Source of the DNA: Actinomycetes bacterium | GTDB taxonomy: Bacteria; Actinomycetota; Acidimicrobiia; Spongiisociales; UBA5794 | DNA: 52,849 nt | Assembly: GCA_023336815.1 (NCBI GenBank) | Contig: JAMBLJ010000054.1 | Span: forward strand, 1 to 52,849 | Direction: 5' to 3' | Shown here: one piece after another, positions 21,942 to 42,637 of the stretch | Layout of the letters: every line of letters begins with the position of its first letter | How positions within the stretch are numbered: position 1 is the first letter of the stretch | Made by a program: the position numbers and the translations under genes | Notes under the pieces: generated by a model | The model's input: only the letters and a program-made list of their open reading frames with translations | Told to the model about the DNA's origin: nothing | The model's database searches: none

Positions 21942-23165
21942 CTACTTCCTCACATTCACCGTGCGTTCGATGGCGTTGTAGATGTGTTCGGACATCCTTG
22001 CCTCGTCGGGATCGAGCAGGTTCGCCATCACCTTGAGCGTCCACTCCATCAACGACTGCGAGCGGAGCCCGACGGTGGTGAGTGAACGCATGACCATCGG
22101 GTTTCCGATGGCCTTGACGAACACACGAGCCACGCGGTGGTAGTCCCCATACGCGTCGTCCAGGGCTGTCACGTAATTTGCCAGTGCATCTTCGTTTCCC
22201 GTGGCCGCATCGGCGAGATGGGTCGCAGCCATTCTTCCCGTCTCATAGGCGTAGTCGATGCCCTCTCCGTTGAATGGATTCACGGCACCGGATGCATCAC
22301 CGACAAGCATCCAGTTGCGGCCGACCTTCGGTCCGACGGAGAGCGACATGGGAAGTTTGCCACCGATCGGTTTGGTGTGCGGTGTCACATCCGTGACCTT
22401 CCAGTGGTCAGGGAGAGAGTGGATGTAGGCATCGAGGATGTGCGATGTGTTGACATCCTTCCACCCTTTGAACGTGGAGACGAGCCCGGCTCCGATGTTG
22501 ATCTCACCATCACCGAGGGGAAATACCCAACCGTACCCTGGCATTGCGTTGCCTTCTTTGTCCCTGATATCGAGTTGGCTCTCAATGAACGGGTCCATTG
22601 AAAGCGGACTTGTGTAGTACGCGCGAACTGCGAGACCGTAGGGGTAATCCTTGCGCCGTGATGCGCCAACGCCGCGACCGAATCGTGAATTCGATCCGTC
22701 TGCGATGACGACGAAGTCGGGGTGAACAGTCCGTTCTTCGTCATCCCTGGAAAGTGTCACGCCAACCACTTTGTCGTCCTCGAGAATAGGCATTGCGGTT
22801 GTGCCTTGTTCCACAGTGGCACCCTCGGTCTCTGCTAGACCGGCGACGATCCCGTCGAGATCCGCCCTGCGCATCGTCGCTCCCCAATTGGGATAGATCG
22901 AATGTTCGGGCCATGGCATTTCGATCTTGAGATCTCCTGCATAGGCTCGGAGGCCGTCCACGCGGTGCAGATCGAGGCTGTCGAAGTCGAAGCCCATGTC
23001 GAGCAGCTGTTTGATAGCTCGGGGAGTCAGCCCGTCGCCGCACGCTTTCTCACGTGGGTAGGTCTTCTTCTCCACGAGGTGAACATCAAGGCCATTACGA
23101 GCAAGCCAGTATGCACATGAGGCACCGCCTGGTCCGCCACCGACGACGAGGATATTTGCTGCCAT
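21942..23165 (-). CDS. Geranylgeranyl reductase family flavoprotein (MenJ-like menaquinone reductase)
   Basis: GGGPGG, PREKACGDGLTPRA, GYGWVFP, GDASGAVNPFNGEGI. Confidence 0.85.
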   Translation of the reverse strand: MAANILVVGGGPGGASCAYWLARNGLDVHLVEKKTYPREKACGDGLTPRAIKQLLDMGFDFDSLDLHRVDGLRAYAGDLKIEMPWPEHSIYPNWGATMRRADLDGIVAGLAETEGATVEQGTTAMPILEDDKVVGVTLSRDDEERTVHPDFVVIADGSNSRFGRGVGASRRKDYPYGLAVRAYYTSPLSMDPFIESQLDIRDKEGNAMPGYGWVFPLGDGEINIGAGLVSTFKGWKDVNTSHILDAYIHSLPDHWKVTDVTPHTKPIGGKLPMSLSVGPKVGRNWMLVGDASGAVNPFNGEGIDYAYETGRMAATHLADAATGNEDALANYVTALDDAYGDYHRVARVFVKAIGNPMVMRSLTTVGLRSQSLMEWTLKVMANLLDPDEARMSEHIYNAIERTVNVRK

Positions 23166-23197: not shown

Positions 23198-24817
23198 TCA
23201 GCCTTCGTTCGAAGCTTCGACGAGGCCACAGTCGATCTCGGCGTCAACGAGGTCCTGACCACCGAACTGGACACGTTCATAGAGAGACACAGCGGCGAGT
23301 TGTTCCTCTGAGAGAGATGCCGCGAAACCAGGCATCAATCCGACGCCACCCACGGGTTTCTGGTTCTCTCCATAGGTCGGGTCTGGCCATCCGGCTGTTC
23401 CGATGCCTACCCATTCGATCTGTGTTGCGCATTGACCGGCGGGGAAGGTCTCGAGGACCGCTCCTGCCGTGAACGCTGGGCCTACACCACCTGTACCGTC
23501 AGCATTGTGACACGCAACGCACTGTGCGTAGATGGCACCGCCGGAGGCGAAATAGTCAGCGGTCGTCTCCCCGTACGGGCTCCCGTCACAGTTGACGGCC
23601 TCGCCGGTCGCAGGATCGACGAGAAGTTGTCCGCCCGATCCGCAGTCGGGTCCGTTCGGTGAGACGAGGATGTAACCAACGGCGAGCAGTGGGATGAGGA
23701 GGAACGCTGCGAGAAGCCACTTCGGATACCCGCCCTGTGCCGGTGCAGCCTCGTCGGCTTCATCGCCAGTCGGACCCTGAGCTCTATCCGTCGTGGGTTC
23801 GATCACTTCGACGTCATCCCCGGTGTTCGGGTCCGGTTCTTCATCTGACGGTCCAGACGTATCCTCTGTTGCTGGTTCTGGCGCAGATGGGGGTGCTGTC
23901 GAAACGGCTCCCGGATCCACTCCTGCCCACTCCGCAAGTACGGCTTCGACGGATTCACCCGTCTTCTTAGATCGTGCTTCTGCTGAGCGTTGGGCGAGTG
24001 AGGCTGGCATGCCTTTGACTTCCGCGACCTGTGCGAGCAATTCGTCCATGCTCATCGCTCCAACGGCAACAGCTGCAGCGGCCGCTACTGGAGCGGGTGC
24101 GACGGCATCTGGTTCGACTGGCGGTTCAGTGGCCGCTCCTGGGTCCACTCCTGCCCACTCCGCAAGTACGGCTTCGACGGATTCACCGGTCTTCTTGGAT
24201 CGTGCTTCTGCTGAGCGTTGGGCGAGTGAGGCTGGCATGCCTTTGACTTCCGCGACCTGTGTGAGCAGTTCGTCCATGCTCATCGCACCTACGGCGACGG
24301 CGGCAGCAGCCGCAGTGGCGACGGGGGCGGGTGTGGCCTCCTCCGGCTCGGCTGGTGGCTCGTCCTCCTTCACAACGTCTGGTTCCCCGGATGCAACGGG
24401 TGCTGGAGTCCTTGCTGACACGAGTTCATCGAGATCGATACCCGCCCAATCCGCGAGAACTGAGTCGAGGGTCTCTCCGGCATGGGTGGCTCGAGCCTGT
24501 GCTGACGAGAGGATGAGTTTTGGAGGCATGCGCTTTGCCTCGGATGCGAGTTGGACGAGCTCATCTGTGGTTACACCGGTCGGTACCGACGCAGTGGCGA
24601 GAGCGGGTGTGTCAGGTGTAACCGGTGGTTCGGGTTCAGCTACTGGAGCGGTTGTCACTTCAGGCTTGGACGCCGATGTGGACCCTTCGCCAAGCCATTC
24701 CTGGAGAACCTGTTCGATGGTCGAACCCGTCTTGTCGGCTCTGGCCTGTGCAGATCGCTCGACGAGGGACGCTGGCATCCCTCGCATCTCAGCGACCTGT
24801 TGGAGAAGTTCGTCCAT
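23198..24817 (-). CDS. Membrane-anchored monohaem cytochrome c with four N-terminal ~43-aa repeats
   Basis: Four xDELxxxxxExxxMPxxL...ARxxxxGxxxxxVLxxWxG repeats, one TM, CVACH, MPGF. Confidence 0.85.
   Translation of the reverse strand: MDELLQQVAEMRGMPASLVERSAQARADKTGSTIEQVLQEWLGEGSTSASKPEVTTAPVAEPEPPVTPDTPALATASVPTGVTTDELVQLASEAKRMPPKLILSSAQARATHAGETLDSVLADWAGIDLDELVSARTPAPVASGEPDVVKEDEPPAEPEEATPAPVATAAAAAVAVGAMSMDELLTQVAEVKGMPASLAQRSAEARSKKTGESVEAVLAEWAGVDPGAATEPPVEPDAVAPAPVAAAAAVAVGAMSMDELLAQVAEVKGMPASLAQRSAEARSKKTGESVEAVLAEWAGVDPGAVSTAPPSAPEPATEDTSGPSDEEPDPNTGDDVEVIEPTTDRAQGPTGDEADEAAPAQGGYPKWLLAAFLLIPLLAVGYILVSPNGPDCGSGGQLLVDPATGEAVNCDGSPYGETTADYFASGGAIYAQCVACHNADGTGGVGPAFTAGAVLETFPAGQCATQIEWVGIGTAGWPDPTYGENQKPVGGVGLMPGFAASLSEEQLAAVSLYERVQFGGQDLVDAEIDCGLVEASNEG
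23916..24286. repeat. Intragenic near-identical direct repeat, 143 bp, period 228 bp
   Basis: 23916-24058 versus 24144-24286, few substitutions. Confidence 0.9.
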
Positions 24818-24821
24818 TGCG

Positions 24822-26720
24822 CTACCTCAGCGTCTCGATGTAGGTGACAAGTGCGTCGATATCCGAATCCGATAGGTACGAGTACGACGGCATGGTCGAC
24901 CACGAACGTGCGGCCCTGGGATTGATCAGATGTGGCCCGATCGCATCGACGTTGAAACCCTCACGGGAAGCAAGATGCATCAGGTCCGGTCCGAGACGGT
25001 AGGCGCCGAGTAGCACCGGATTCTCATGGGCATAGTCGCCAGCGAGCGATACCGCGCCGAGACCAACGTCGCTCGCAACGGGTCGCACCTGTTGCGTATG
25101 ACACTCGGCGCAGCCCTCGGAAACGTAGAGGTCGCGACCGATCGATGCTGCAGAACCATCGGCGTACGTTCGCTCGGTGTCAGCCAGCAAGGTCGACTCT
25201 GCGTCCGTGCTGTCGACCATCGGAAGAATGGCCGTGAACATTGCGGCGAAGAGCCACACCGCAACGACACCTCTGGTCAATCGTTTCCACGTTGCATATC
25301 GTTGCTTGCCGGAGAACTCGAGGTCATAGGCGGCGTGTCCGTCCGGGACCGCAAGGTCTTCGTCGTTGCGGCTTCCCACGCGAACGAGGAAGATGATCTG
25401 GGCGACCGTGAAGACCGCAATCGATGCAGCCGTGACCCATAGAAATGGGTACACCGTGTCAGCGGTGACCTTCCAAGCCGGACCCCAGTTCGCGAAGTTC
25501 TGGCTTGTAGGACCAGCGGCCCAGGAAAATCCGACGGCGACTCCACCCATGAGGAGTGCTGCGACAGCACCAGTGAGCCCGGTGAGCGACCACGCGAAGT
25601 GGAAGCTCGACCCGGAGGATGACCCTCCGCTGAGCACTCGATGTCCTGCGAATATCGCAAAGGACACGCCACCCAGTACCACGAGCAACTGCAGCGCCCG
25701 TACCCAGGGGGAGAATTGCACGATGCTGCTCGTCGCTGGCCACGTCAGGAGCAGATTCACGGCAGTCGTGGCGACGAAAGCGAGACCGCCTACGGTCGCG
25801 TAGCGCAAGGATGCCTTGTCGCCGACACTCGCAATGCGACCCTTGAGGAGCAGTCCAAGGTCCGTGACGATCACGAGAGTCGGAACGATCGCTCCGATCG
25901 CAAAGGCAATACCGATACTTTCGAACCAGTTCGGTGCCGGTGAGAAGATCAAACGGGTCGCACTCATGAATGACCACACCAGGATCAGTGACCAGAAACC
26001 CAGGGCCGCCAGTGGGCCAGCTTCGGTTGGGTCGGACCCGCTGATGTGTCCGAATACAAAGTACAACAGTCCGACGGCCGCCGTGATCATGAACAGTGTG
26101 AGTCCTGCACTGCCGAACGCCCCAACAACAGCCCCCGATGTACCTGCTGGTGCGGGCAGGATCGCTGCAAGTGCGGTGAGTGTGAGCAGAATCGGTGCAG
26201 CTGTTAGGTACCAGCCAGCTGTACCAAGTCGATCACGGTTGGACCGTGCGGTCGCTGTGATCGACATCGTGGCGAGCAATGCTCCGATGGCAAGAAGCGC
26301 ACGTGACCATATCGGTGCCTCAAGACCGGTGATCCCGCTGTTGAGACCGAACAGGATGCCGGCGGCGCCGCCTGCGCTCGCGATAACAAGGGCGACGAGG
26401 GAGGCCAGAGCGAGGGCGCTCCTCTCAAGGGGGTTGTTCGTGATCTTTGAAAGGGCGAAATAGCTGACTCCGAGAAGCCCGATGACTGCCCAGCCATACG
26501 TGAGAAGTAGACGACTTGCAGGGGCGATTCGACCGTAGCTCGTAAAGGCGTACGTTGACGCAAGATCCGGAAGTGCGATCTGGAACAGGGCCAGTGACGA
26601 TCCGGCGAGACCGGTGACAAGGAGTATCGCAGCCACGACGAGATGTGTACGCGCTGTCCGTGTGCTTGTCTCTTCCACTTCGGCACTCTGTACGTCGTTG
26701 GGTGAAGTTTCAGCCGTCAC
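24822..26720 (-). CDS. cbb3-type oxidase CcoN-like domain (His ligands absent) fused to a CcoO-like cytochrome c
   Basis: About 12 TM following the CcoN motif order; C-terminal GRDLYVSEGCAECHTQQVRP, RLGPDL, STMPSY; AGGAGG RBS. Confidence 0.8.
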   Translation of the reverse strand: MTAETSPNDVQSAEVEETSTRTARTHLVVAAILLVTGLAGSSLALFQIALPDLASTYAFTSYGRIAPASRLLLTYGWAVIGLLGVSYFALSKITNNPLERSALALASLVALVIASAGGAAGILFGLNSGITGLEAPIWSRALLAIGALLATMSITATARSNRDRLGTAGWYLTAAPILLTLTALAAILPAPAGTSGAVVGAFGSAGLTLFMITAAVGLLYFVFGHISGSDPTEAGPLAALGFWSLILVWSFMSATRLIFSPAPNWFESIGIAFAIGAIVPTLVIVTDLGLLLKGRIASVGDKASLRYATVGGLAFVATTAVNLLLTWPATSSIVQFSPWVRALQLLVVLGGVSFAIFAGHRVLSGGSSSGSSFHFAWSLTGLTGAVAALLMGGVAVGFSWAAGPTSQNFANWGPAWKVTADTVYPFLWVTAASIAVFTVAQIIFLVRVGSRNDEDLAVPDGHAAYDLEFSGKQRYATWKRLTRGVVAVWLFAAMFTAILPMVDSTDAESTLLADTERTYADGSAASIGRDLYVSEGCAECHTQQVRPVASDVGLGAVSLAGDYAHENPVLLGAYRLGPDLMHLASREGFNVDAIGPHLINPRAARSWSTMPSYSYLSDSDIDALVTYIETLR

Positions 26721-26938
26721 GAGCCGGCGTCCTCCTGGTGCGGTTGTCTTCCGTCGTCCTGTGCAGGCGGTGAAACTCTAGCCGCGACGTTGGAGTCAGC
26801 AGTCATCTGCGCTGGAGTTTCTGGCGTGTGCGCGAGAATTGTTGCCGAGATGCCGACAAACTGTCGCGACTCCGACTTGAATAATCGGAGACAACGTACA
26901 CGGCGTACAATGCACGCCCAACATGCAAGGGAAGATTC

Positions 26939-27523
26939 GTGAACGGACGTAGACAGATCATCGCGGGCGTCGCTTTGATCCTGATCGGCCTTGTTGTAAC
27001 CATTGGTGCATCGGTTGTAGTGCACATGGCGGAGGCCCCCGAATTCGACGACCTTGGCCGCGAGCTGTTCGCGGGTGTTCCCAGGGGATGGCAGGTCGCG
27101 ACGCTTGCTCAGATCGTCGCCCTCGGCGGTGTGATCATCTCGCTTGCCGGTGCTACATACGGGTTCTTGTGGCAACAACCTCTGACATGGGCGCGGGCAA
27201 TGCTCGGTGCGCTGCTTTTCGCTTCCCTGATGTTCGTTATCTTTGCGATTGTCCCGAATCAGTTCCTGACGCTGACACAGGCGACGCTGGAATGGACACC
27301 ACAGAAAACGTTCCTTGTGGTCCCTCCCATCGTGGCGTTGAACAACGAGATCTCGCTTTCCTATGCAGCGCTCAAGGACATGATCTCGGCCGGGTATGCG
27401 ACAACGATGCTGATCCTCATTCCGGTCATCATGTACAAGTGGCAGGAGCGTGCGAAAACTCAGGACGCCCCGAAACCAGATCCCGTATCTGACTACGGCA
27501 GACCCCTGCGCGTGGATCGCTGA
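26939..27523 (+). CDS. Hypothetical 4-TM protein, first gene of the bc operon
   Basis: 194 aa, hydrophobic, C-terminal SDYGRPL; coupled to the ferredoxin gene. Confidence 0.75.
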   Translation: MNGRRQIIAGVALILIGLVVTIGASVVVHMAEAPEFDDLGRELFAGVPRGWQVATLAQIVALGGVIISLAGATYGFLWQQPLTWARAMLGALLFASLMFVIFAIVPNQFLTLTQATLEWTPQKTFLVVPPIVALNNEISLSYAALKDMISAGYATTMLILIPVIMYKWQERAKTQDAPKPDPVSDYGRPLRVDR

Positions 27524-27966
27524 TGGCGAAGGAAGTCTGGCTCGAAACGCCACCGATGCGGGATGACTATCAACTCGCGCTCGTGGACACGGAGTACATG
27601 AACGCGGCTGTGAAACCCAAGCAGTTCATCCACATCAATGAATCCGAATGCATTCTGTGTGCCGGATGCGTCGACATCTGCCCCTGGAAATGCATTCAAC
27701 TTCTCTCGCCAGATATCGTCACCGAAGCGATTGGTGTTGACGACCCGAACGACAACGAGGAGAACGGCGCCGTGTTCGTCATCGACGACACCGAGTGCAC
27801 CAGATGCAAGTTGTGCGTCGATCGATGTCCCACCAACGTCATAACCATCGGTAAATTCGGTGGTTCATTGGTAGCCAGTTCTGATGCGTTCGACGCTGCA
27901 CCGTGGGAATACGATTCTGGCACAAGAGATACCAAGAGTGGCGTCGCGTATGGCGTGCGCTGGTAG
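27523..27966 (+). CDS. 2x[4Fe-4S] ferredoxin
   Basis: CILCAGCVDICP and CTRCKLCVDRCP. Confidence 0.9.
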   Translation: MAKEVWLETPPMRDDYQLALVDTEYMNAAVKPKQFIHINESECILCAGCVDICPWKCIQLLSPDIVTEAIGVDDPNDNEENGAVFVIDDTECTRCKLCVDRCPTNVITIGKFGGSLVASSDAFDAAPWEYDSGTRDTKSGVAYGVRW

Positions 27967-27981
27967 GAAGAGGAGAACGAG

Positions 27982-28758
27982 TTGGTAGACGGCAACGGCA
28001 GGACGAGCGTCAAGGACGCTGTCACCGGAATGGGAGACCATGTCCGGAACTCTCAGGTGTGGAACTCGATCTTCCGCCCTGGTTCGCCGATGCGTGCGGA
28101 TGGGGGAGACTCGCCGAGGAACCGTGCCTACGTTGTCATGAACAACGTTCTCTACCACCTGCATCCAGTCAAGGTAAAGCGACATGGCGTCCGCCTGTCC
28201 TACACGCTGTGTCTCGGAGGGCTGAGCTTCTTCCTCTTCATCCTTCTGACGGTCACAGGGATCTTCCTGATGTTCTACTACCGACCGACGTCACCCCAGG
28301 CGTACTTCGATCTTCAGGCTCTTGCAACAGATGTAGCGTTCGGGCAACTCGTTCGCAATATGCACAGGTGGGGCGCACACATCATGGTGCTGACTGTGTT
28401 CCTGCACATGGCTCGTGTGTTCTACCACGGTGCGTACAAGCCACCACGGGAATTCAACTGGGTTGTTGGCATCGTTCTGTTGCTGTTGACGCTTCTGCTG
28501 TCGTTCACCGGCTACCTACTCCCATGGGACCAACTCGCTCTTTGGGCTGTCACTGTTGGTTCGAATATGGCTGCGTATACCCCCGTATTCGGCAACCAGG
28601 TGACGTTCGCGCTCATCGGGGGTATACAGATCACCGCGGACACCCTTCTGCGCTGGTACGTGCTTCACGTGTTGTTCCTCCCGTTCATCATCACCATCTT
28701 TATGGCCGTCCATTTCTGGCGGGTCCGTAAAGATGGCGGCATCTCAGGTCCGCTGTAA
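27982..28758 (+). CDS. Cytochrome b6-type subunit (PetB/QcrB-like) of menaquinol:cytochrome c reductase
   Basis: CLGG, MHRWGAH...[17 protein letters not shown]-x14-H. Confidence 0.92.
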
Positions 28759-28767
28759 GGAGACACC

Positions 28768-29625
28768 GTGGCACAGCTTCCAGATCATCTCCTCAAACGG
28801 GCCGCCGAGGCCAGAGCGAAAGCAGAAGGCCGAACGGTCGACGACGTCATGGCTGAGATGAAGGGCGAACCGGCCGCAGCTTCGCCGTCGCCTGCAGCCG
28901 CCGTGACATCGGGTCCTGGCAGGGATCTCGATGCTGAGGCTGCAACGTACGGTGTTCCCCGACCGCTCCTCGAACGATCGATGTTCGCCCGTGCAAGAAT
29001 GGACGGCACGGCCGTACCCGCAATGGCCGGCGCACCTGCAGCCGCACCTGCAGCCACGGCATCCGCAGCAGCGGCTCCCGCGGCCGCTGCGCCGACAGGT
29101 CCGCCACCGGGTGTGAGAACACAACGTCTCCTCACTGTGGTCAAAGCAGGGGCGATTCAGGGCACCACCAAGGAACCCGCAGACAAGGTCAACGTGTGGC
29201 CGCACCTGCTGGCAATCGAATTCGTGGCGTTGTTGGCTATGTCCGCTTTCCTCTTCTTGCTGTCAGCGCTGATGGATGCACCGCTTCTCGAGTTCGCAAA
29301 CTTCAACGAGCAGCCGAACCCATCCAAGGCGCCGTGGTACTTCCTGGGACTCCAGGAGCTGCTCGCGTACTTCGATCCTCAGGTCGCCGGTGTGATCATT
29401 CCTGGGTTCGGTATTGCCGCACTAGCATTTATCCCGTACATCGATCGAAACCCGTCGGTGCGTCCTTCGAATCGCAAACTTGCGATCTCGTTGTTCACGG
29501 TGTTCTTTATGGGTGCAGCTGTGTTGACGATCTTCGGCTCGTTCTTTCGCGGACCGGGCTTTAACTTCGTATTTCCCTGGACCGATGGGATATTCTTTGA
29601 CGACCTGCTAGCGATTCTCGAATGA
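28768..29625 (+). CDS. Subunit IV (PetD-like) with N-terminal repeat extension
   Basis: VWPHLL, PNPSKAPWYFLGLQE, PYIDRNP, 3 TM. Confidence 0.88.
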   Translation: MAQLPDHLLKRAAEARAKAEGRTVDDVMAEMKGEPAAASPSPAAAVTSGPGRDLDAEAATYGVPRPLLERSMFARARMDGTAVPAMAGAPAAAPAATASAAAAPAAAAPTGPPPGVRTQRLLTVVKAGAIQGTTKEPADKVNVWPHLLAIEFVALLAMSAFLFLLSALMDAPLLEFANFNEQPNPSKAPWYFLGLQELLAYFDPQVAGVIIPGFGIAALAFIPYIDRNPSVRPSNRKLAISLFTVFFMGAAVLTIFGSFFRGPGFNFVFPWTDGIFFDDLLAILE

Positions 29626-29632
29626 GGCACCC

Positions 29633-30493
29633 ATGAGCGCCACTGCAATCTTCGTTCTCATCATCCTCGCAGCTGCTGCCATGGTCGTTGTAGCGATCGT
29701 TGCTGTTGCCAGCAGTCGGTCGGACACCGATGGTGCCGCGACGGCAGGCGAGCTGGATCGCAAGGCTGCCAGGGCCGACAAGGCGCGACGCAAGGCCAAG
29801 ATCGAAGTCGCCGCCGCATCCGGCGGTCCCGGCCGAGAGACGACCGTGATGTTGGTCGATCCCGCTGCGGAGTACGAGACCGCAGTACCGCTCGAGGAGA
29901 TCTCCGCCGTGGAATACGGTGTGACAAGACGCAAGTTCTTCAATCGGGCGATAGGTGCCGTTTTCGGTCTTTTCATGTTGCAGTTCGCCCTTGCCGGATT
30001 GGCGTTTTTCTGGCCGAAGCTCAAAGGCGGTTTCGGGACACCGATCAAAGCTGGCGATGTGAGCACCCTCAAGTCAGAGGTGCTCGTTGCTGGAAAGATC
30101 GTGCCCAAGTTCGTTCCGGCTGCCCAAGCCTGGATCGTTCCCTTCGACATGAGCAACCTGGAGGGTTCGTCCTATGAGGAGGTGCCCTTCGTTGTTGTTG
30201 GTGGCGAATCAGACGGCATCGGTCTTATGGCGCTGTGGCAGCGATGTGTCCATCTTGGATGCCGTGTGCCGTCCTGCGAGTCGTCACAGGGGTTCGAATG
30301 CCCGTGCCATGGTTCGAAGTACAACGGCCATGGCGAATATGCGGCTGGCCCCGCACCGCGGAACCTGGATCGGTTCGGCGTATCGATCGACAGCGCGGGT
30401 GAGCTCGTGATCGACACGGGAACGGTTGTGCAGACAGCACGTGCGAAGGTGTACACAGTTGCGTATCCACAGGGTCCGTTCTGTGTTGGTTGA
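29633..30493 (+). CDS. Rieske iron-sulfur subunit
   Basis: Internal Tat motif TRRKFF, CVHLGC, CPCHGS, GPAPRNL. Confidence 0.93.
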   Translation: MSATAIFVLIILAAAAMVVVAIVAVASSRSDTDGAATAGELDRKAARADKARRKAKIEVAAASGGPGRETTVMLVDPAAEYETAVPLEEISAVEYGVTRRKFFNRAIGAVFGLFMLQFALAGLAFFWPKLKGGFGTPIKAGDVSTLKSEVLVAGKIVPKFVPAAQAWIVPFDMSNLEGSSYEEVPFVVVGGESDGIGLMALWQRCVHLGCRVPSCESSQGFECPCHGSKYNGHGEYAAGPAPRNLDRFGVSIDSAGELVIDTGTVVQTARAKVYTVAYPQGPFCVG

Positions 30494-30517
30494 TGGACTG
30501 AAAAAGGTGATGGGTCA

Positions 30518-32149
30518 GTGATTTCAACAGGTATACATCTAGCGGCACTCGTGCTCGCAACCGGCGAGGACGCCGGAGTGGTGTCGAGCGGTTCAGGGCT
30601 TGGTGTTGGTGCTCTGGCCCTCATGGCCGTGGTCGTTCTTCTCCTCGGTTGGATGGCGTATCTTTACATCAACTCCCGTCGCAGCGCCGCGGCCGCTCAG
30701 GATCCAGCTCCGCCGAACCTGTCTCCCCCTGCCTCGGACGATGAACTCGAGAACCGCAAACTGACACGAGTCCTGCGTGCGGCTCTCTTCGGCAGCGCAT
30801 TGCTTGCTATCGCTCTCCCCTGGTACGCCATCAACGAACCGGATCGTCAAGACACCGCGGCCGAGTCGATCCTCGAAGAAGATGTCGAGGCTGGTGCCCA
30901 CTGGTTCAGTGTCGACGGGTTCGCATGTGCCCAGTGTCACGGTCCTACCGCGGGTGGTGGAGCCGCCCCCTTCACGGAAGCTCGGAGCGGCGTTGATGTC
31001 TCCTGGGCGGTTCCGTCTCTGGACGATGTGCTGTTCCGATACTCCGAAGAAGAAGTGAAGTTCTGGATCGTCTTCGGTCGCGATGGAACCCCGATGCCGG
31101 CCAATGGCCTTGAAGGGGGAGGGGCGATGACGGTCCAGGAGGTCGATCAGACCATCGAGTATCTGAAGTCCATCCAACTCAGTCAGGTTGATGCCTTTGC
31201 TAAGTCAGAGTCGACCGTCGATCTTGCCCTGAAAGCGATCGAAGGCGGAGAAGCTAGGGCACGATCCCTCATCAACCTTCAGCAAGCGGATATCGATGCG
31301 GTGAACGCCGCACCTGACAAGCTCGCGGTGACCGGTTCCTTCGCAGATGATGTCAAGGATCTCCTTCAGGCGCCGGGAACGTGTACAGCTGCATCAGCGA
31401 AGCTCGTGGACACAACGTGCGAAGATCCCGGCGAAGACAGTGATCGGGATGGCCTGACAGATGACGCTGAGAAGGCACTGACAGAAATCGCATCGGTTTC
31501 CATGGAGACTCTCGTTGTTCCCGTCGCATCACAGAACGACGAAGGGATCACCGAATACTCGTTCGAAGCCAATGAGCAGTACGCGTTGAGGTACGACCCC
31601 TTCGTAGCATTCACGAACATCGACCCGGATTCGAGGAACCCCGCACCGGATCTCGACATGGCGGCGGTACTGCTCGAGCACCTCGAGACCGATCTCCTGC
31701 TCGTCGGCGTGACGGCCGATCGTCAGGATCAGTTCCTCGAGGGGTTGAATTCCGGTATGGCCTTTCTCGAGCAGTCTCTCGCTGACCAGCTCTGGAATAT
31801 CGACTACGCGACCGTCGCCACCAACATGGATGTTTCGGAGGCCGATGCACAACGCGGTGTTGGACTCTTCAACTCATATTGTGCGCGGTGTCACACCGGT
31901 GGCTATTCCGCAGGAGCTCCATTCGAACAAGGGGCTGGCACCGGTGCGTGGGGACCGTCACTTCTCGATGGGCGGGCCGAAGGCCAGTTTCCTACCATCG
32001 ATGACCAGGTTGCATTCGTCATGACAGGATCTGACAACGGCGAACGGTACGGCGTCAACGGTCTCGGTACGGGCCGGATGCCCGGATTCGGCCAGGTGCT
32101 GTCCGTCTCAGACATCGAGCTCATCGTGAAGTACGAAAGGACACTCTGA
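30518..32149 (+). CDS. Membrane-anchored dihaem cytochrome c
   Basis: CAQCH...MPA and CARCH...MPGF; N-terminal TMs; start uncertain. Confidence 0.88.
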   Translation: MISTGIHLAALVLATGEDAGVVSSGSGLGVGALALMAVVVLLLGWMAYLYINSRRSAAAAQDPAPPNLSPPASDDELENRKLTRVLRAALFGSALLAIALPWYAINEPDRQDTAAESILEEDVEAGAHWFSVDGFACAQCHGPTAGGGAAPFTEARSGVDVSWAVPSLDDVLFRYSEEEVKFWIVFGRDGTPMPANGLEGGGAMTVQEVDQTIEYLKSIQLSQVDAFAKSESTVDLALKAIEGGEARARSLINLQQADIDAVNAAPDKLAVTGSFADDVKDLLQAPGTCTAASAKLVDTTCEDPGEDSDRDGLTDDAEKALTEIASVSMETLVVPVASQNDEGITEYSFEANEQYALRYDPFVAFTNIDPDSRNPAPDLDMAAVLLEHLETDLLLVGVTADRQDQFLEGLNSGMAFLEQSLADQLWNIDYATVATNMDVSEADAQRGVGLFNSYCARCHTGGYSAGAPFEQGAGTGAWGPSLLDGRAEGQFPTIDDQVAFVMTGSDNGERYGVNGLGTGRMPGFGQVLSVSDIELIVKYERTL

Positions 32150-32670
32150 TGGGGTACCTCCGCACACGCACCCGACGTCTGGGTTCCCAGGAATCCGGAA
32201 TCTCGAAGCTCGAGACTCTTGGTCTGATCGCGTTCATCCTCGCCCTCCTCGCAATGGTCCCCTTTATTCGCAACTGGGTGATCAACGCTATCGGTGTTGT
32301 CTTTGGTCAGGTCGACGAAGATACGGGCGAGATCAACGACTTCTCGACTGCAATGCGTGGTTTCGCCATCGTGGGCGGTGCCGTGATCGTGTTCATCGGC
32401 TCGGGTGCTTTGCTGTTGTGGACGAACCTTGGAAAACGTCTTGCTTTCCTGATCACAGGCGCTGCGACGTTCGGTTGGCTCACGATCAACGGAGTTCTCT
32501 TCGTTGTGTACGCACCCCGAGGAATTCGTCCCACGAACCTCGAGGGACTCAACTCGATTCAGGTGCGCCTTCCCGCTCTCGCCATGACCCTGGGATCGTT
32601 CGTCCTGTTCTTGATGTTCACCCTCGCCCTCGCACGCTACGAATCGGACATGAGCGCCGAAGAGGCGTAG
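32149..32670 (+). CDS. Hypothetical membrane protein, last gene of the bc operon
   Basis: 173 aa, 4 TM, TNLGKRLAFLI; coupled to the upstream stop. Confidence 0.75.
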   Translation: MGYLRTRTRRLGSQESGISKLETLGLIAFILALLAMVPFIRNWVINAIGVVFGQVDEDTGEINDFSTAMRGFAIVGGAVIVFIGSGALLLWTNLGKRLAFLITGAATFGWLTINGVLFVVYAPRGIRPTNLEGLNSIQVRLPALAMTLGSFVLFLMFTLALARYESDMSAEEA

Positions 32671-32966: not shown

Positions 32967-33587
32967 TCAACCTGAGTTGCGATGGAAGGCGAGGATGCCG
33001 AGTTCCGTCGACAGATCAACCCTTCGAATGAATACCTCGTCGGATGTCTGAAGTATCGTCGGTGCGAGATTCAAGATGGATGTGACCCCCGCCTCCGCGA
33101 GTCTGTTCGCGACGGACTGTGCTGCGCTTGCGGGTGTGGCGATGATGCCGATCTCTATGCCCCGCTCCTTGACGATATCGGCAAGTCGATTGGCTGATTC
33201 GATCTTCAGACCATCTACCGGGTCTCCGATCTTGTCGTTGTCAATGTCGACCACTGCAACGACGTCGAACCCCCACGCATCGAAACCTTTGTAGTTCGTC
33301 AGGGCGGAACCAAGGTTCCCGGCACCAACGATCACGACCGGGTACGTACGTGTCAGGCCAAGCACCTTGCGGATCTGGCTTCGTAGCTCGCGAATGTCAT
33401 ACCCGACACCACGTGTTCCATAGCTACCGAGATACGAAAAGTCCTTGCGGACCTGTGCGCTGTTGACCCCGGCGGCGATGGCGAGTTGCTCTGACGAACA
33501 CTTGGCCTCACTGTCGACCATGTCTGTGAGACAGTGCAAGTACCTGGGTAGGCGGGCCACCGTGGCTTGGGGAATCGTACCCTTCAT
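32967..33587 (-). CDS. rex: Redox-sensing transcriptional repressor Rex
   Basis: IPQATVARLPRY, QVRKDFSYLGSYGTRGVGY, GAGNLG; start MKGT, 7 nt after TAGGCT. Confidence 0.95.
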   Translation of the reverse strand: MKGTIPQATVARLPRYLHCLTDMVDSEAKCSSEQLAIAAGVNSAQVRKDFSYLGSYGTRGVGYDIRELRSQIRKVLGLTRTYPVVIVGAGNLGSALTNYKGFDAWGFDVVAVVDIDNDKIGDPVDGLKIESANRLADIVKERGIEIGIIATPASAAQSVANRLAEAGVTSILNLAPTILQTSDEVFIRRVDLSTELGILAFHRNSG

Positions 33588-33699
33588 CGCAATAAGCCTA
33601 CGAAGCGCGGTGTGTTGACGTGTATCGGGAAGCCCTTCGTTCCTGACTTTGGTACTGCGTGATTTCTGATGGGTCCAGAGGGTCGGTAACCTCACAACC

Positions 33700-34122
33700 A
33701 TGGAGCTTGTCGACTATCTGCCTATTGCTCTTCTCACGTTGCTCGGCATTGCGTTTGCTGGAGTTTCACTCGTTCTCGCCCGAGTGCTTGCACCTTCGAA
33801 CCCGACACCTGAGAAGCTGGCTCCGTACGAGTGCGGTATCGTTCCGCTTCAGGAACCAGTGCAGCGTTTCCCCGTCAAGTTCTACCTCGTTGCGATGTTG
33901 TTCGTCATTTTCGATGTTGAGATCATCTTCCTTTTCCTATGGGCTGTTCGCATGGATCAGTTCGGCTGGGCGGGGATCGCGACGGTGGTGGCGTTCATGC
34001 TCATGCTCATCGAAACGCTTGCATACGCCTGGAAACGTGGCGCGTTGGACTGGAACGTCTCACATCGGACGCGTACACGTCGGGTTGTTGCGCCTGAGGC
34101 CACGATCGAGAAGGCCGCCTGA
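33700..34122 (+). CDS. nuoA: NADH-quinone oxidoreductase subunit A
   Basis: [26 protein letters not shown]. Confidence 0.95.
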
Positions 34123-34607
34123 TGGCTGGCGTGGCCTCTGATCCCGGATTCCTCATGTCCACGATGGAAAAAGGTGTCAACTGGGCCAGGACACGCTCCA
34201 TGTGGCCTGCGACGTTCGGTCTGGCGTGTTGTGCCATTGAGATGATGGGGACTGGCGCTGCGCACAACGACCTCTCGAGATTCGGCATGGAGGTGTTTCG
34301 CGCCTCACCCCGCCAGGCCGATCTCATGATCGTTGCTGGCCGCGTGTCCCAGAAGATGGCACCCGTTCTGCGGCAGGTGTACGACCAGATGGCGGAACCG
34401 AAGTGGGTCATCTCGATGGGCGCCTGTGCTTCCTCTGGTGGGATGTTCAACAACTACGCCCTCGTTCAGGGTGTCGATGAGGTAGTACCTGTCGATATCT
34501 ATGTTCCCGGATGCCCGCCAGGACCACAGTCGCTGATGCACGGCATTCTCACCCTCCACGAGAAGATCATGTCCGGGGAGATCCAGCGATCGACCGGTCT
34601 GGTATGA
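34122..34607 (+). CDS. nuoB: NADH-quinone oxidoreductase subunit B
   Basis: [20 protein letters not shown]. Confidence 0.97.
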
Positions 34608-34608
34608 C

Positions 34609-35169
34609 ATGACAGACGAGATCATGCCTCCCGAAGAATCAGCTGCAGAGGAGCGCGACTCGGTTCGGCGCGCTCTACCCGAAGTTGCGAGCATCGCGAG
34701 CCTGTTCGCCGCGTTCGAGGACGCAACCTTCGAGGTACGGTCGTATGCGTCGAGCGATGTGAGATATCACACGATCGATGTGCCCGTCGACGACTGGGTA
34801 GCGTTCGCGCGATCGGCAAAGGATGTTGGATTCGATACGTTCGTGGATCTTGCTGCGGTGGATCACTTCGCTGACGCTCCACGTTTCGAGGTAGCTCTGA
34901 ACCTGATCTCGATGGTCGAGAAGGAACGCATCATCATCTCCACTCGCGTCGCGTACGACGTTGCTTCGGTTCCAACCGTGACCGACGTGTTCGTTGGTGC
35001 GAACTTCTACGAACGCGAGGCGTACGACCTCTTTGGAATCGATTTTCCGGGACATCCGGACCTGACTCGAATCCTGATGCCTGACGACTGGGAGGGTCAC
35101 CCGCTTCGCAAGGATTACGACATTGGTGCCGTGCCGGTGGAGTTCAAGGCCGGGAGTCTCGATCTGTGA
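34609..35169 (+). CDS. nuoC: NADH-quinone oxidoreductase subunit C
   Basis: [18 protein letters not shown]. Confidence 0.95.
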
Positions 35170-36593
35170 CGGACACACCAGACACAACAGCCCCCGTGGA
35201 GGACCCGGCACCTATCGGTCCGGATGCATCGGTTGCCTTTAGCGTGGAAGACGAACGGCGAAAGCAGCACGAGATCTGGGTTTCGGGCACAGAGGAACGG
35301 ATGCCGTTCGCCAGTGCTACCAATGAAGGTGCTCAGGAGCTCTTGCCTCGCGACCAGGATCCGGCTCTTGCACTCCAAACCGGCACCGCTGTCGAGGATG
35401 ATTTCATCTCGTTTGTTCCGGCGATCGACGAGGAACGGCAGATCATCAACATGGGCCCACAACACCCATCGACCCACGGCGTGCTGCGGCTTCAAGTGGA
35501 GCTCGAAGGCGAGACCGTGCGCAGGGTCAAACCCATCATCGGGTATCTGCACACTGGCATGGAGAAGACCGCAGAGACGCTGACCTACGCCCAGGGTTCG
35601 ACGAACGTCACACGTATGGACTACCTCTCACCGTTCCACAACGAACTTGCGTACTCGCTGACCGTTGAACAGCTCCTCGGTATCGATGTTCCTGCACGCG
35701 CTGATGCCATCAGGATCCTCATGACCGAGCTGAACAGGGTGTCGAGCCATCTGCTGTCAACGGCAACGATGGGTATGGACATCGGTGCTCTTTCGATGAT
35801 GATCTACGGGTGGCGTGAACGCGAACTCTGTCTCGACTTCTTCGAGAAGACAACCGGTCTCCGCATGAACCACAACTACATCCGGCCAGGGGGAGTAGCA
35901 GCCGAACTTCCTGACGGTTGGGAGGACGACATCGTCAGCATCATCGAGGGTGTCAACGCCGGTGTCGACGAGTACGAAGAGTTGCTCAACGAAAATCCGA
36001 TCTTTCTCGACCGCACGATTGGTGTTGGGGTGCTGACTCCTGAAGAAGTCAAACAGTACGGCATCACAGGACCGGTGGCTCGTGCATCTGGCATCGACTG
36101 GGATCTGCGCAAGGCGATGCCCTACAGCGGGATCGAAAAGTACGAGTTCGATGTCCCGACGGGTCTTCACGGTGACGTGAATGATCGATATCACCTTCGG
36201 ATCAAGGAGATCCGCGAGTCACTCAAGATCGTCCACCAGGTGCTCGAATCGATCCCTGCCGGTGACTATCGAAATCCGGACCCAAAGGTCACGCCACCCC
36301 CTCGCAAGCGCATCGATGAATCGATGGAGGCGCTGATCCACCACTTCAAGCTCTTCACATCAGGTATCGAGGTCCCACCGGGTACGGCGTACCAGTCCGT
36401 CGAGGGACCACGCGGCGAGATCGGTTGCTACCTCGTATCCAAAGGTGGAACCAAGCCGTGGCGAATGCACTGGAGGGCCCCCTCCTTTGCCGTTGTGCAG
36501 TCGTTACCTGCGATGATGTCTGACTCGCTTATCGCTGACCTGATCTCGGCGCTTGCCTCGACGGATCCTGTCCTTGGGGATGTGGACCGATGA
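35166..36593 (+). CDS. nuoD: NADH-quinone oxidoreductase subunit D (acidic N-terminal extension)
   Basis: [28 protein letters not shown]. Confidence 0.96.
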
Positions 36594-37219
36594 GTTCCCC
36601 GATATCTGCATGGTCGCATGCCAGCCAGGAAAGGGTGCAGACGATCCTTGACTCGTACCCCGAGCCTCGTTCGGCGATCATGCCCCTCCTCTATATTGCG
36701 AGCCTCGAACATGATCGTGTTTCCCCAGAGGCGATGCGGCAAGTCGCTGAATTGACCGGTGTGACCCCGGCACAGGTTGCCTCGGTCGCATCCTTCTACA
36801 CGATGTTCAAACGCGACGGTGTCGGCGAGTATCTCGTGTCTGTATGCACATCGATCTCTTGCTTCTTGCGGGGAGCCGACGATGTCCTGGAAGTTGTGGA
36901 AGATGCAACCGGTGCCAGGCGTGGTGAGACATCGTCCGACGGCACATTCACAGTTGAACACGTCGAATGTATCGGCTCGTGTGGTGGAGCGCCGGCGGTA
37001 CAGGTGAACTACGAACTCATCGAGGGTGTATCCACAGACAACGGCCGAAAGCTGGTTGCGTGGCTGAAGGATACCAAACCACAGGTCGTTCTGGCTGACG
37101 AGATGCAGCAGCTGTTTGGCGGTAGTCGTTCTTTCGACTGGGGCGGTCCCGAACCGGAAGGTGCTATTGCGCCTGTTCCTGCGTTCGGTCCGTACGGATC
37201 CTCAGGGGAGGGACGTTGA
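36590..37219 (+). CDS. nuoE: NADH-quinone oxidoreductase subunit E
   Basis: SFYTMF, CTSISC, ECIGSC. Confidence 0.93.
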   Translation: MSSPISAWSHASQERVQTILDSYPEPRSAIMPLLYIASLEHDRVSPEAMRQVAELTGVTPAQVASVASFYTMFKRDGVGEYLVSVCTSISCFLRGADDVLEVVEDATGARRGETSSDGTFTVEHVECIGSCGGAPAVQVNYELIEGVSTDNGRKLVAWLKDTKPQVVLADEMQQLFGGSRSFDWGGPEPEGAIAPVPAFGPYGSSGEGR

Positions 37220-38508
37220 CAGACTTGATCCTGACCGCACGTATGACCGCGCACCCTGCTGATAGCCATATGATCGATCGTTTCGTTGCTACCGGTGGGT
37301 ACAGCGCTCTCCGGAAGGCTCTCACCGAGTTGACGCCAGAAGAAGTCAAGGATGAGGTCAAGGCATCGAATATGAGAGGTAGAGGTGGGGCAGGGTTCCC
37401 AACGGGTGTCAAGTGGGGGTTCCTCGCCGCTTCAGAACCGCGGTATCTGGTCGTCAACGGTGACGAATCTGAACCGGGTACGTTCAACGATCGTCAGCTC
37501 ATGGAGCGTGACCCTCATCAGCTCGTTGAGGGCATAGCCATCTCAAGCTACGCACTCGGGATAGGCCACGCGTTCGTGTACATCCGTGGTGAGTACCCGC
37601 GATCGGCACGGCGTGTGCAACGAGCTATCGAGGAGGCCTACGCGGCCGGTTACCTTGGAGACGGAATCCTCGGCACCGACTTTTCCCTCGACGTGACCGT
37701 CCATCTCGGTGGTGGTGCATACATCTGTGGCGAGGAAACAGCACTGCTCAACAGTCTCGAGGGGCGACGAGGTGAACCGAGGCTCAAACCGCCGTTCCCC
37801 GCTGTCGAGGGTCTGTATGCGAAACCCACGATCGTCAACAACGTGGAGTCCATCTCGAACGTTCCGTGGATCGTCAACAACTCCGGAACGTCCTATGCCG
37901 CCATCGGTCCTGAGCGCTCCGCCGGAACCAAGATGTTGAGTATCTCCGGCCATATAAACAAGCCTGGCAACCACGAGATCATCATGGGAATGACCTGGCG
38001 AGATATGATCTACGACCTTGGCGGAGGCATCCCTGACGACAGGGCGCTCAAGACCTGGATTCCGGGAGGAGCATCCGCTCCCTGGTTCGTCCCCGAGGAA
38101 CATCTCGACACGATCCTGTCGATCGATGATGTTGCTGCCAACGGTTCGATGATCGGTGCTGGTGCCGTTGTCGTGATGGATGAAACGACGAATGTCGTTG
38201 CAGCAGCGCATCGAATCGTTCGCTTCTTCGCACACGAGTCGTGTGGACAGTGCACACCATGCCGTGAAGGGACTCGTTGGCTTGAAGACGTGCTGAAGAG
38301 GATTCTCGACGGTCGCGGACGCCCCGAAGATATCGACCTGCTCCTCGACATCTCGGACAATATTTCCCCAGGTCTCTCCTGGCCGCCGGCGATGACAACG
38401 ATCTGCCCGCTCGGACCGTCAGCGGTTTCTCCTGTGACCTCGATTACACGGTGGTTCCTCCCCGAGATCGAGGCGATGATCGCCGGAGGTGGTGATTCCG
38501 ATGGCTGA
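37216..38508 (+). CDS. nuoF: NADH-quinone oxidoreductase subunit F
   Basis: GRGGAGFP, DESEPG, YICGEETAL, ESCGQCTPCREG. Confidence 0.96.
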   Translation: MTDLILTARMTAHPADSHMIDRFVATGGYSALRKALTELTPEEVKDEVKASNMRGRGGAGFPTGVKWGFLAASEPRYLVVNGDESEPGTFNDRQLMERDPHQLVEGIAISSYALGIGHAFVYIRGEYPRSARRVQRAIEEAYAAGYLGDGILGTDFSLDVTVHLGGGAYICGEETALLNSLEGRRGEPRLKPPFPAVEGLYAKPTIVNNVESISNVPWIVNNSGTSYAAIGPERSAGTKMLSISGHINKPGNHEIIMGMTWRDMIYDLGGGIPDDRALKTWIPGGASAPWFVPEEHLDTILSIDDVAANGSMIGAGAVVVMDETTNVVAAAHRIVRFFAHESCGQCTPCREGTRWLEDVLKRILDGRGRPEDIDLLLDISDNISPGLSWPPAMTTICPLGPSAVSPVTSITRWFLPEIEAMIAGGGDSDG

Positions 38509-41961: not shown

Positions 41962-41971
41962 GGAGGCATCG

Positions 41972-42637
41972 ATGAGCTGGTTCGCAGACCTTCTCGGTCC
42001 ATTCAGGGGCTTTGCCGTGACTATGCGTCAGGTGGGAAAGCCACGGCTGACGATCAAGTACCCCGCACAGAAACGGGTCAAACCGGAGCGTTTTCATGGG
42101 CGACACGTTCTCAACCGGTACCCCGACGGCATGGAGAAGTGCATTGGATGTGAATTGTGTGCGGGTGTGTGCCCTGCGAACTGCATCTATGTGCGTGGCG
42201 CGGATAACCCACCGGAGGAGCCTGTCAGCCCAGGCGAACGATTCGGTTTCGTGTACGAGATCAACATGCTGCGGTGCATCTTCTGTGCGATGTGTGTCGA
42301 AGCTTGTCCCACACAGGCGATCACGATGACCCATCTGTTCGAGATGTCAGTGACCGAACGTGCTGACGGCATCTACACGAAAGATGAACTTCTTGTTGAG
42401 CCCGATGGGACGCCGAACCATCCGCAGCCACCATCGGAACTTATCGACCTCGACGAACTCACGGCCGGCGACGGGTGGATGCGAGCCACATCACCAGCGG
42501 GTCATGCCGCATATGAAGGCGTCGTAGCTTGGACGCCCTCTGCGAGAACCGGAGACCTCCCGGCTGAACGAGGTCAGATGAGCGATCCGCAGCTGGATGC
42601 CGGTGTCTCCGAAGAGAAGGAAGCCGACGATGGGTGA
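41972..42637 (+). CDS. nuoI: NADH-quinone oxidoreductase subunit I
   Basis: CIGCELCAGVCP, CIFCAMCVEACP; AGGAGG RBS. Confidence 0.96.
   Translation: MSWFADLLGPFRGFAVTMRQVGKPRLTIKYPAQKRVKPERFHGRHVLNRYPDGMEKCIGCELCAGVCPANCIYVRGADNPPEEPVSPGERFGFVYEINMLRCIFCAMCVEACPTQAITMTHLFEMSVTERADGIYTKDELLVEPDGTPNHPQPPSELIDLDELTAGDGWMRATSPAGHAAYEGVVAWTPSARTGDLPAERGQMSDPQLDAGVSEEKEADDG

Follow-up and report, generated by a model that had tools for sequence, protein, structure and literature searches.

A ligand-less cbb3 oxidase derivative divergently linked to a ferredoxin-bearing, b6-type cytochrome b operon: a candidate menaquinol:cytochrome c reductase of Acidimicrobiia

The DNA studied here is contig JAMBLJ010000054.1 of an Actinomycetes bacterium (GenBank assembly GCA_023336815.1; GTDB lineage Actinomycetota; Acidimicrobiia; Spongiisociales; UBA5794), which was analysed over its positions 1 to 52,849 and is referred to below, in its full length of 52,849 nucleotides, as the window. 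Between positions 23,198 and 32,670 lies a cluster of respiratory genes, which we call the island and which is organized as two divergent arms. The gene map was derived from the listing of open reading frames (ORFs) together with Pfam, NCBIfam and motif scans. The features of the island are as follows (aa, amino acids; TM, transmembrane).

23198..24817, minus strand: repeat cytochrome c (repC), 539 aa, with four ~46-aa N-terminal repeats, one TM segment and one CxxCH
24822..26720, minus strand: pNO, a pseudo-CcoN fused to CcoO (COX1+FixO), 632 aa, one CxxCH
26721..26938, no strand: putative divergent control region between the arms, 218 bp
26939..27523, plus strand: orphan 4-TM subunit TM4a, 194 aa; its stop codon overlaps the ferredoxin start
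27523..27966, plus strand: 2x[4Fe-4S] ferredoxin, 147 aa, 2x CxxCxxCxxxCP, no TM segment
27982..28758, plus strand: cytochrome b6, a gene separate from that of subunit IV
28768..29625, plus strand: subunit IV, 285 aa, KAPWYF motif, two N-terminal three-helix modules
29633..30493, plus strand: Rieske [2Fe-2S] protein, two TM segments, RRKFF twin-arginine motif, CVHLGC / CPCHGS
30518..32149, plus strand: dihaem cytochrome c, 543 aa, N-terminal TM segments, CAQCH at 137 and CARCH at 455
32149..32670, plus strand: orphan membrane subunit TM4b, 173 aa, 4-TM

The gene order, the 218-bp spacer and the four CxxCH motifs spread over three island proteins had been described in an earlier reading of the letters alone (the sequence-only reading), and all of them were reproduced by our scans. 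One competing gene model was rejected: a 278-aa minus-strand ORF over positions 26717-27553 is Arg-rich and has no relatives, and the 194-aa plus-strand ORF with which it competes is conserved in 52 loci.

The arrangement of the island is far beyond chance, as it recurs in 54 public loci. Related loci were sought in one genome per species, and 79 were retrieved. Of these, 16 are ordinary cbb3 loci from other phyla that contain no further island gene, and 63 are of the island type; seven of the latter come from records whose titles name other phyla, perhaps as a result of binning. The cytochrome b6 gene stands head to head with pNO in 54 of the 63 island-type loci, that is, in all 54 with enough flanking sequence. 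In the remaining nine, the contig ends at most 1.3 kb upstream of pNO, and four of these nine show TM4a or the ferredoxin at the edge. The sequence-only reading had proposed a new complex and had named a failure of the two arms to co-occur as a finding that would refute it. The arms are adjacent in 54/54 loci and co-occur across genomes, and the proposal is not refuted on this count. The island is not a peculiarity of this one genome: it is lineage-wide (54 loci).

The distribution of the two arms was assessed in 301 genomes, comprising 300 genomes of the class and that of the window. pNO was present in 111 of these, including 34 of the 36 genomes of ~1 Mb, and its range covers nearly all of the order to which the window belongs, except one family, together with three families outside that order. 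Strong TM4b matches were found in the same families as pNO, while TM4b-like matches overall were detected in 265/301 genomes. Within the order (n = 86), 74 genomes had both arms, nine had neither, three had TM4b only, and none had pNO only. The three TM4b-only assemblies are fragmented (160-370 contigs), and two of their three TM4b hits lie less than 2 kb from a contig start. These tallies include the unpublished genomes G228 (in the counts of pNO, TM4b and COX1), G197 and G245 (both in the counts of TM4b and COX1), the omission of which shifts each count by no more than 3 and changes no conclusion.

The spacer between the arms measures 151-276 bp in 49 of 52 loci. In the window, it holds a Shine-Dalgarno site and a conserved -10-like hexamer for each arm. 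The element at 26772-26786, GAAACTCTAGCCGCG, contains TAGAGT on the minus strand, and the element at 26905-26916, GGCGTACAATGC, holds TACAAT on the plus strand; both are conserved across 19 loci. TAGAGT and TACAAT are probably the -10 hexamers of two divergent promoters. A search with the Rex consensus, at up to two mismatches, detected no operator-like site within the spacer of 218 bp; this consensus had one match in the window, outside the island, where 1.52 would be expected by chance. At one locus (L029:6315-10000), a 3.7-kb insertion between the arms replaces the ~200-bp spacer.

A key question concerns the nature of pNO, the relatives of which are annotated at the source as cbb3 oxidase subunit I/II. 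The protein is laid out as a 12-TM body, followed by a TM anchor and a FixO-type monohaem cytochrome c domain. Pfam matched COX1 weakly over residues 23-413 (59.5 bits) and FixO/CcoO over residues 524-624 (76.7 bits). A pseudo-CcoN profile of 18 sequences matched CcoN of P. stutzeri (3mk7_A) with 210.6 bits (E 2.7e-61), profile positions 19-469 being aligned to residues 10-468; because this match extends over all twelve helices, homology to CcoN is beyond doubt. The alignment was used to locate the columns of the six His residues that ligate haem b, haem b3 and CuB, namely, H60, H207, H257, H258, H345 and H347 in the P. stutzeri numbering. Not a single one of the 55 pNO family sequences has a His at any of these columns or at the adjoining ones. 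The window protein has S69, A205, T255, R256, L343 and L345 in their place, and Ala, Gly, Val, Ser and Thr are the replacements at most sites across the family. The column of the cross-link Tyr (Y251) is likewise substituted, with Trp in 36 sequences, Gly in nine, Ala in five, Ser in four and Met in one (n = 55). No column is an invariant His in the family; the invariant residues are mostly Gly, Pro and Trp, and such a pattern looks like conservation of packing rather than chemistry.

The CcoO part, which matches 3mk7_B with 80.5 bits, keeps its haem site: C537, C540 and H541 (CAECH at 537) and the axial M610 are invariant in 16/16 sequences. The curated cbb3 models of NCBIfam score far below their cut-offs on pNO (PRK14485, 119.8 vs. 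1080; ccoN, 24.8 vs. 583; ccoO, 72.6 vs. 200.65). The family comprises more than 100 clusters at 90% identity, which are 49-71% identical and derive mostly from metagenome-assembled genomes of Acidimicrobiia. In distant loci, the CcoN-like (~470-525 aa) and CcoO-like (~250 aa) parts are separate genes. Judged by its residues, pseudo-CcoN is not the oxygen reductase named in the databases, and because the ligands of haem b, haem b3 and CuB are all lost, pNO would be incapable of O2 or NO reduction. The sequence-only reading had regarded the CcoN part as a pseudo-oxidase and the locus as lacking a working O2 site, and both views are borne out by the ligand columns. A single ~1-Mb genome (G088, L092:12459-13866) has its pseudo-CcoN split into two ORFs of 222 and 238 aa in different frames, which is either a frameshift or a sequencing error; in its relatives G005 and G056, the frame is intact (469 aa).

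The plus arm encodes a complex of a different kind. The best PDB matches of its cytochrome b6 profile are cytochrome b6 chains (178 bits), followed by cytochrome b of bc1 complexes (~130 bits) and actinobacterial QcrB (~93 bits). The haem ligands His128/His142 and His229/His244 are invariant in 37/37 sequences, and the 15-residue offset on helix D is presumably a mark of the b6 type. Cys77 (..YTLCLGG..) aligns with the haem-ci cysteine (..FYCLGG..) of 6rqf_I, b6 Cys35, and is also invariant in 37/37; from this cysteine, a covalent haem ci is predicted in the island b6. In subunit IV, residues K187, A188, P189, W190, Y191 and F192 (KAPWYF) are invariant in 37/37, and the Qo motif is thus APWY and not PEWY. 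By this motif, the complex would belong to the APWY clade of Kao & Hunte 2014 (PMC4122944). Among the NCBIfam models, b6 passes ExtP (NF040969, 304.3 vs. 290) and subunit IV remains under ExtQ (NF040970, 58.6 vs. 150); no ext-type neighbour genes are present around the island. The Rieske protein carries CVHLGC at residue 205 and CPCHGS at 223, with RRKFF before its second TM segment. The position of cytochrome f is taken by the dihaem class-I cytochrome c, in which an insert of ~220 aa separates the two domains. The Qcr models of NCBIfam score far below their cut-offs (QcrB, 110 vs. 500; QcrA, 22.7 vs. 275; QcrC, 24.9 vs. 200). Together with the PDB ranking, this agrees with the earlier proposal of a b6-type, quinol-oxidising core that is not QcrCAB.

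One structural element is shared by both arms. repC contains four three-helix modules on Ala/Pro/Glu-rich linkers, a TM segment at about residues 368-386, and CVACH at 433, and its repeats and the N-terminus of subunit IV represent the same ~47-aa unit. A hidden Markov model built from the loci detected this module in the 3.0-Mb genome of the window only on repC (four copies) and subunit IV (two copies). In loci with an unfused CcoO and in the ~1-Mb genomes, subunit IV, CcoO and the anchored cytochrome c each bear a single copy. The AlphaFold model of the module is a three-helix bundle with a predicted local distance difference test score (pLDDT) of 90.8. The module is rare, with 445 carriers among 1.84 billion representative proteins and one to seven copies per carrier. 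Among 61 longer carriers scanned, there were 22 cytochromes c, six FixO proteins, six subunits IV and 27 others, of which 23 had no Pfam match and four had only hits that were weak, below the cut-off or without a stretch. The window copy and 28 others gave no Pfam match at E <= 0.001; the weak rows comprised none for the window copy and three different single-member hits (E 0.037-0.099) among the other 28. No PDB structure matched the module model in Foldseek at E <= 0.001. An assignment to helix-turn-helix domains was rejected: the weak Pfam hits of this type, seen on proteins with several copies, fall on the module itself and were not read as evidence of homology.

The position of the modules, before the TM anchors of outward c-haem domains, suggests that they are cytoplasmic, and in repC this topology would leave the monohaem c domain facing outward. 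No other feature hints as strongly as the module that proteins of the two arms contact one another or share a partner. repC itself may not be CcoP, because it is monohaem, bears repeats and is related to a protein from a genome that lacks CcoN/O: a 265-aa homologue (34% identity, E 3e-8) encoded divergently beside the b6 operon of a pNO-less genome. In a pNO-less family, the locus L098:1467-6135 (genome G274) shows an anchored cytochrome c facing the b6 operon, followed by haem-biosynthesis genes, namely, an aminotransferase of class III (HemL-like), HemB and a HemD/methylase fusion.

The two orphan membrane subunits are conserved as well. TM4a shows the motifs MTWARA and VPxxWL..Q..LEW and a C-terminal S.YGRP tail, and its AlphaFold2 model has a pLDDT of 85. 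TM4b consists of a conserved core of ~118 aa with three TM segments, to which an extra N-terminal TM segment is added in the clade of the window, and carries the motif YAPRG.RP..EGLN. TM4a had no match at the cut-off or otherwise convincing in Pfam (best E 0.081) or NCBIfam (best E 0.014), and TM4b had no match at all in either. No sequence relative of TM4a or TM4b was found in the PDB, the protein atlas returned unnamed clusters only, and the TM4a model had no Foldseek match at E <= 0.001. Two possible relationships were considered and discarded: TM4a and TM4b show no similarity to each other (BLASTP E 0.29), and TM4b is not related to the QcrA-like protein of this genome (hhalign probability 0.1%). 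Complex prediction for b6, subunit IV and TM4a with the ferredoxin as a partner gave 0.11 and 0.10 against a mark of 0.32; this was treated as no verdict and used neither way.

Another important question is which acceptor receives the electrons of the island. The clearest inventory is that of three ~1-Mb genomes (G088, G005 and G056; 87-94% complete, 1-3 contigs), in which the island b6 is the only PF00033 match. Their COX1 matches consist of one real A-type oxidase (~520 bits), encoded remote from the island, and the pseudo-CcoN; no cytochrome bd was found in these three genomes. COX2 genes were found in all three, and the COX2 of G088, the one that was read, combines an intact CuA motif with a fused cytochrome c domain and is of the caa3 type. 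COX2 of the window genome also has CuA. Across the class, a real COX1 (E <= 1e-40) is present in 290/301 genomes. Within the order, 7 of the 9 genomes without the island also have no real COX1, and 72 of the 74 with the island have one. This pattern fits forward flow from menaquinol through the c haems to aa3/caa3. Of the three fates offered by the sequence-only reading for the electrons (a remote oxidase, an alternative acceptor or a ferredoxin-linked cyclic route), the feeding of a remote oxidase is the best supported, both by the inventory of the ~1-Mb genomes and by the co-occurrence with COX1.

The genome of the window is more richly equipped. It has two A-type oxidase loci (C161 and C202), a cytochrome bd (C107) and two further Rieske/cytochrome b loci. 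The first of these (C134, L089:7434-14480) encodes an unsplit cytochrome b of 563 aa fused to a C-terminal cytochrome c, with a QcrA_N-type Rieske protein; its neighbours include two secreted multihaem proteins with PKD/Ig domains and six and four cytochrome c domains. The second (C284, L088:4074-14672) is another split b6 locus with b6, subunit IV, a Rieske protein and a cytochrome c. Its immediate neighbours are a 606-aa GltD-like NAD(P)H Fe-S flavoprotein (Pyr_redox_2 + Fer4_20 + Fer4), a cytochrome c and a Nar/Nxr-like molybdoenzyme pair (1206-aa NarG/NxrA-like and 504-aa NarH-like).

We consider it probable, with appreciable room for doubt, that the island encodes the main menaquinol:cytochrome c reductase of its clade, which feeds aa3/caa3 and in which a dead cbb3 oxidase serves as a cytochrome c scaffold, with a docking module shared between the arms. 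The electron path, the scaffold role, the association of the arms and the role of the ferredoxin are deduced; the gene content, the lost ligands and retained c-haem sites, the b6-type features, the synteny and co-occurrence, the shared module and the status of the island as sole complex III in the streamlined genomes are observed. The plus arm would form a split b6-type menaquinol:cytochrome c oxidoreductase with an APWY Qo site, haems bL, bH and ci, a Rieske protein and a dihaem cytochrome c. A cytoplasmic ferredoxin and two lineage-specific membrane subunits would be attached to this b6 complex. The minus arm would be derived from ccoNO, with the 12-helix CcoN body kept as a membrane scaffold for the haem c of CcoO. 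Electrons would pass from menaquinol to the Rieske protein, the dihaem cytochrome c, the CcoO-type and anchored c haems, and finally to the remote aa3/caa3. The module probably serves as a docking tag present on both arms, by which they, or a partner shared by them, would be held together. In this way, the island would encode the housekeeping complex III of a large clade of Acidimicrobiia.

Several observations weigh against this interpretation. Related genomes are not independent, and the counts of co-occurrence overstate the support that they lend. Three pNO-less genomes of other families (G185, G274 and G025) keep TM4a, the ferredoxin, b6 (73-76% identity), subunit IV, the Rieske protein, the dihaem cytochrome c and a TM4b-like protein. 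The b6/ferredoxin arm thus exists without pNO in the pNO-less genomes examined, which makes pNO an accessory that the core complex can do without. The ferredoxin gene in turn was not found in 4 of the 54 loci holding b6 (L037, L038, L039 and L041). Three pNO-positive genomes (G141, G288 and G112) had no real COX1 at E <= 1e-40. The genome of the window, which also has a cytochrome bd and two more Rieske/cytochrome b loci, need not use the island as its only route. Finally, reverse operation has been argued for APWY complexes in the accessible part of PMC4122944.

The pNO-less genomes also bear on the history of the island. In these three genomes, subunit IV has only weak module matches (13-17 bits). 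The b6/ferredoxin operon is class-wide, probably together with its anchored cytochrome c, and the pair derived from ccoNO is an insertion in one large clade. Among the pNO-positive genomes without a detected real COX1, G141 (four contigs, 95% complete) has pNO (413 bits) and TM4b; it is possible that the island works with another acceptor there.

Among the alternatives, the best placed, possible though clearly less probable than the reductase reading, is that the ferredoxin defines the function of the complex. Reduced ferredoxin would deliver electrons to quinone via haem ci, or bifurcation at Qo would reduce ferredoxin, and cytochrome c reduction would be half of the job. The ferredoxin gene, found in 50/54 loci holding b6, is translationally coupled in the operon; its product has a mean column identity of 74% over 36 orthologues, and its N- and C-terminal extensions are conserved and invariant. 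The haem-ci cysteine of b6 is invariant, and the ferredoxin-bearing operon occurs in other families of the class. The same alternative gains from the GltD-like NAD(P)H Fe-S flavoprotein at the second b6 locus of this genome, as in anammox bacteria in the accessible part of PMC12954380, and from the atypical working proposed for the APWY clade in that of PMC4122944. Against it stand the four loci without the ferredoxin and the ~1-Mb genomes, in which a single b6 accompanies a single oxidase (of the caa3 type in the genome read) and forward quinol oxidation is needed anyway. Moreover, no partner that would reduce or oxidize the ferredoxin is encoded in the island, and lifting an electron to a potential of about -400 mV, against that of the membrane, would be energetically demanding. 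In the four loci in question, b6 starts within ~70 bp of TM4a, and the ferredoxin of this sub-clade may have been lost or relocated; TM4a is longer (243 aa) in two of them.

To our knowledge, a ferredoxin route through the chloroplast b6f complex for cyclic flow has long been hypothesised and never shown. A more elaborate version for the island, in which the ferredoxin is a stably bound cytoplasmic subunit and exchanges electrons with haem ci as a hard-wired ferredoxin-quinone-cytochrome c junction, appears to us rather speculative; the modules on both arms would then serve to keep the soluble redox partner and the dead cbb3 scaffold together in a megacomplex with aa3/caa3.

It is also rather unlikely that the two arms are separate machines which share a regulatory region, with pNO and the anchored cytochrome c as a module of their own (for electron exit to an external or alternative acceptor, assembly or sensing) that makes no contact with the b6c complex. 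The core operon without pNO in other families, the conserved -10-like element proper to each arm and the three pNO-positive genomes without a detected real COX1 speak for this reading. They are opposed by the rare module on subunits of both arms, which was found on no other recognised protein type among the 61 carriers scanned, by the conserved head-to-head spacing, and by the fact that pNO was never found without the plus arm (0/86 genomes).

The possibility that the CcoN-like domain is still a catalytic O2 or NO reductase, with its metals held by unconventional ligands, is in keeping with the annotation as cbb3 subunit I/II and with the strong conservation of the 12-helix body; it is nevertheless very improbable given the absence of His from the ligand columns (0/55), the lack of any invariant His, the replaced cross-link Tyr and NCBIfam scores far below the cut-offs. 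That pNO is a decaying, functionless pseudogene, as the loss of all catalytic ligands and the G088 copy split over two frames might suggest, is the least credible reading of all in view of its open, full-length frames, 49-71% identity over more than 100 clusters, intact CcoO haem site and presence in 111/301 genomes, including 34/36 of the ~1-Mb ones.

The reductase reading can be set beside several known systems. With the cbb3 oxidases CcoN/CcoO/CcoP, including the bc1-cbb3 supercomplex (3mk7, 5djq, 6xkw), the island shares the CcoN body, the haem site of CcoO, and the gene order N, O and TM-anchored cytochrome c; CcoN-CcoO fusions also occur among real oxidases. It differs from them in that the six His and the cross-link Tyr are absent in 55/55 sequences and that the third gene encodes a monohaem protein with cytoplasmic repeats. 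Like the b6f complex and the Bacillus-type b6c complex, the island has a split cytochrome b with b6-type spacing of the helix D His residues, a haem-ci cysteine, a subunit IV and a Rieske protein. It departs from them in its APWY motif (instead of PEWY/PDWY), in the ferredoxin and the two orphan subunits, and in a dihaem cytochrome c of 543 aa where they have cytochrome f or a fused cytochrome c. No PetG, PetL, PetM or PetN genes were identified in the island. With the actinobacterial QcrCAB-aa3 system, the island has in common the monoderm actinobacterial background, the use of menaquinol, a dihaem cytochrome c in place of a soluble carrier and, as the likely partner, an aa3-type oxidase; it differs in its split, b6-like cytochrome b (~93 bits to QcrB vs. 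178 to b6).

Within the APWY clade, the Geobacter proteins ExtO/ExtP/ExtQ (PMC5877670) share with the island the APWY motif, and the island b6 exceeds the cut-off of the ExtP model; its subunit IV stays below that of ExtQ, and the porin, rhodanese and multihaem cytochrome context of the ext clusters is absent from it. The clade, described as biochemically uncharacterised, includes one isolate of Acidimicrobiia (Kao & Hunte 2014, PMC4122944). The accessible parts of PMC4122944 and PMC5877670 make no mention of a ferredoxin, orphan subunits, a pseudo-oxidase or a docking module. The anammox Rieske/cytochrome b complexes with an NAD(P) oxidoreductase, for which bifurcation at Qo has been proposed (PMC12954380, accessible part), resemble the island operon in having an extra cytoplasmic Fe-S protein; the island differs in having only a 147-aa ferredoxin, without a flavin or NAD(P) domain, and the anammox-like architecture is found at C284 instead. 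The modules on Ala/Pro linkers recall, by analogy, the helical peripheral-subunit-binding domain in E2 of 2-oxo-acid dehydrogenases, to which no sequence relation was detected.

Within the literature available to us, no paper on the island or on a ligand-less CcoN was found. No cofactor-less family appears in the accessible part of a 2024 survey of the haem-copper superfamily (PMC11214002), and that of a survey of a sister order mentions only a cytochrome b subunit of complex III (PMC12008989). Complex III is stated to be missing in streamlined marine Acidimicrobiia (PMC7771536, accessible part). The three ~1-Mb genomes inventoried here, which to judge by their size and class would belong to the group surveyed in that paper, carry the island as the only cytochrome b complex found, and this bears on the "missing" complex III. 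Where high-affinity, microaerobic respiration is deduced for Acidimicrobiia from metagenomes on the strength of the pNO annotation, the deduction would be wrong. A cofactor-less shell of a haem-copper oxidase under strong selection would be an unusual case of a catalytic subunit turned into a scaffold, and the island b6, with its haem-ci cysteine and a genetically attached ferredoxin, offers a bacterial system for testing the role of haem ci and ferredoxin.

On both sides, the island is flanked by further genes.

21942..23165, minus strand: flavoprotein of the geranylgeranyl-reductase family, MenJ-like, directly downstream of repC on the same strand; syntenic in most close loci
32967..33701, minus strand: Rex-type redox-sensing repressor; syntenic in most loci
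33700..48391, plus strand: nuo operon, with Pfam matches to nuoB, C, D, E, F, G, H, I, J, K and L

These flanks agree with those named in the sequence-only reading (a MenJ-like reductase, rex and nuo). In the nuo operon, the Pfam confirmation extends from nuoB through nuoL and includes another antiporter-like subunit (46913-48391), with nuoM outside the scan, and nuoA is the ORF at 33700-34122, which has no Pfam match of its own and is named by its position. The product of 21942-23165 scored 287 bits with the MenJ model NF045655, under the cut-off of 700, and exceeded the TIGR02032 cut-off in the NCBIfam scan (226 vs. 158.8 bits).

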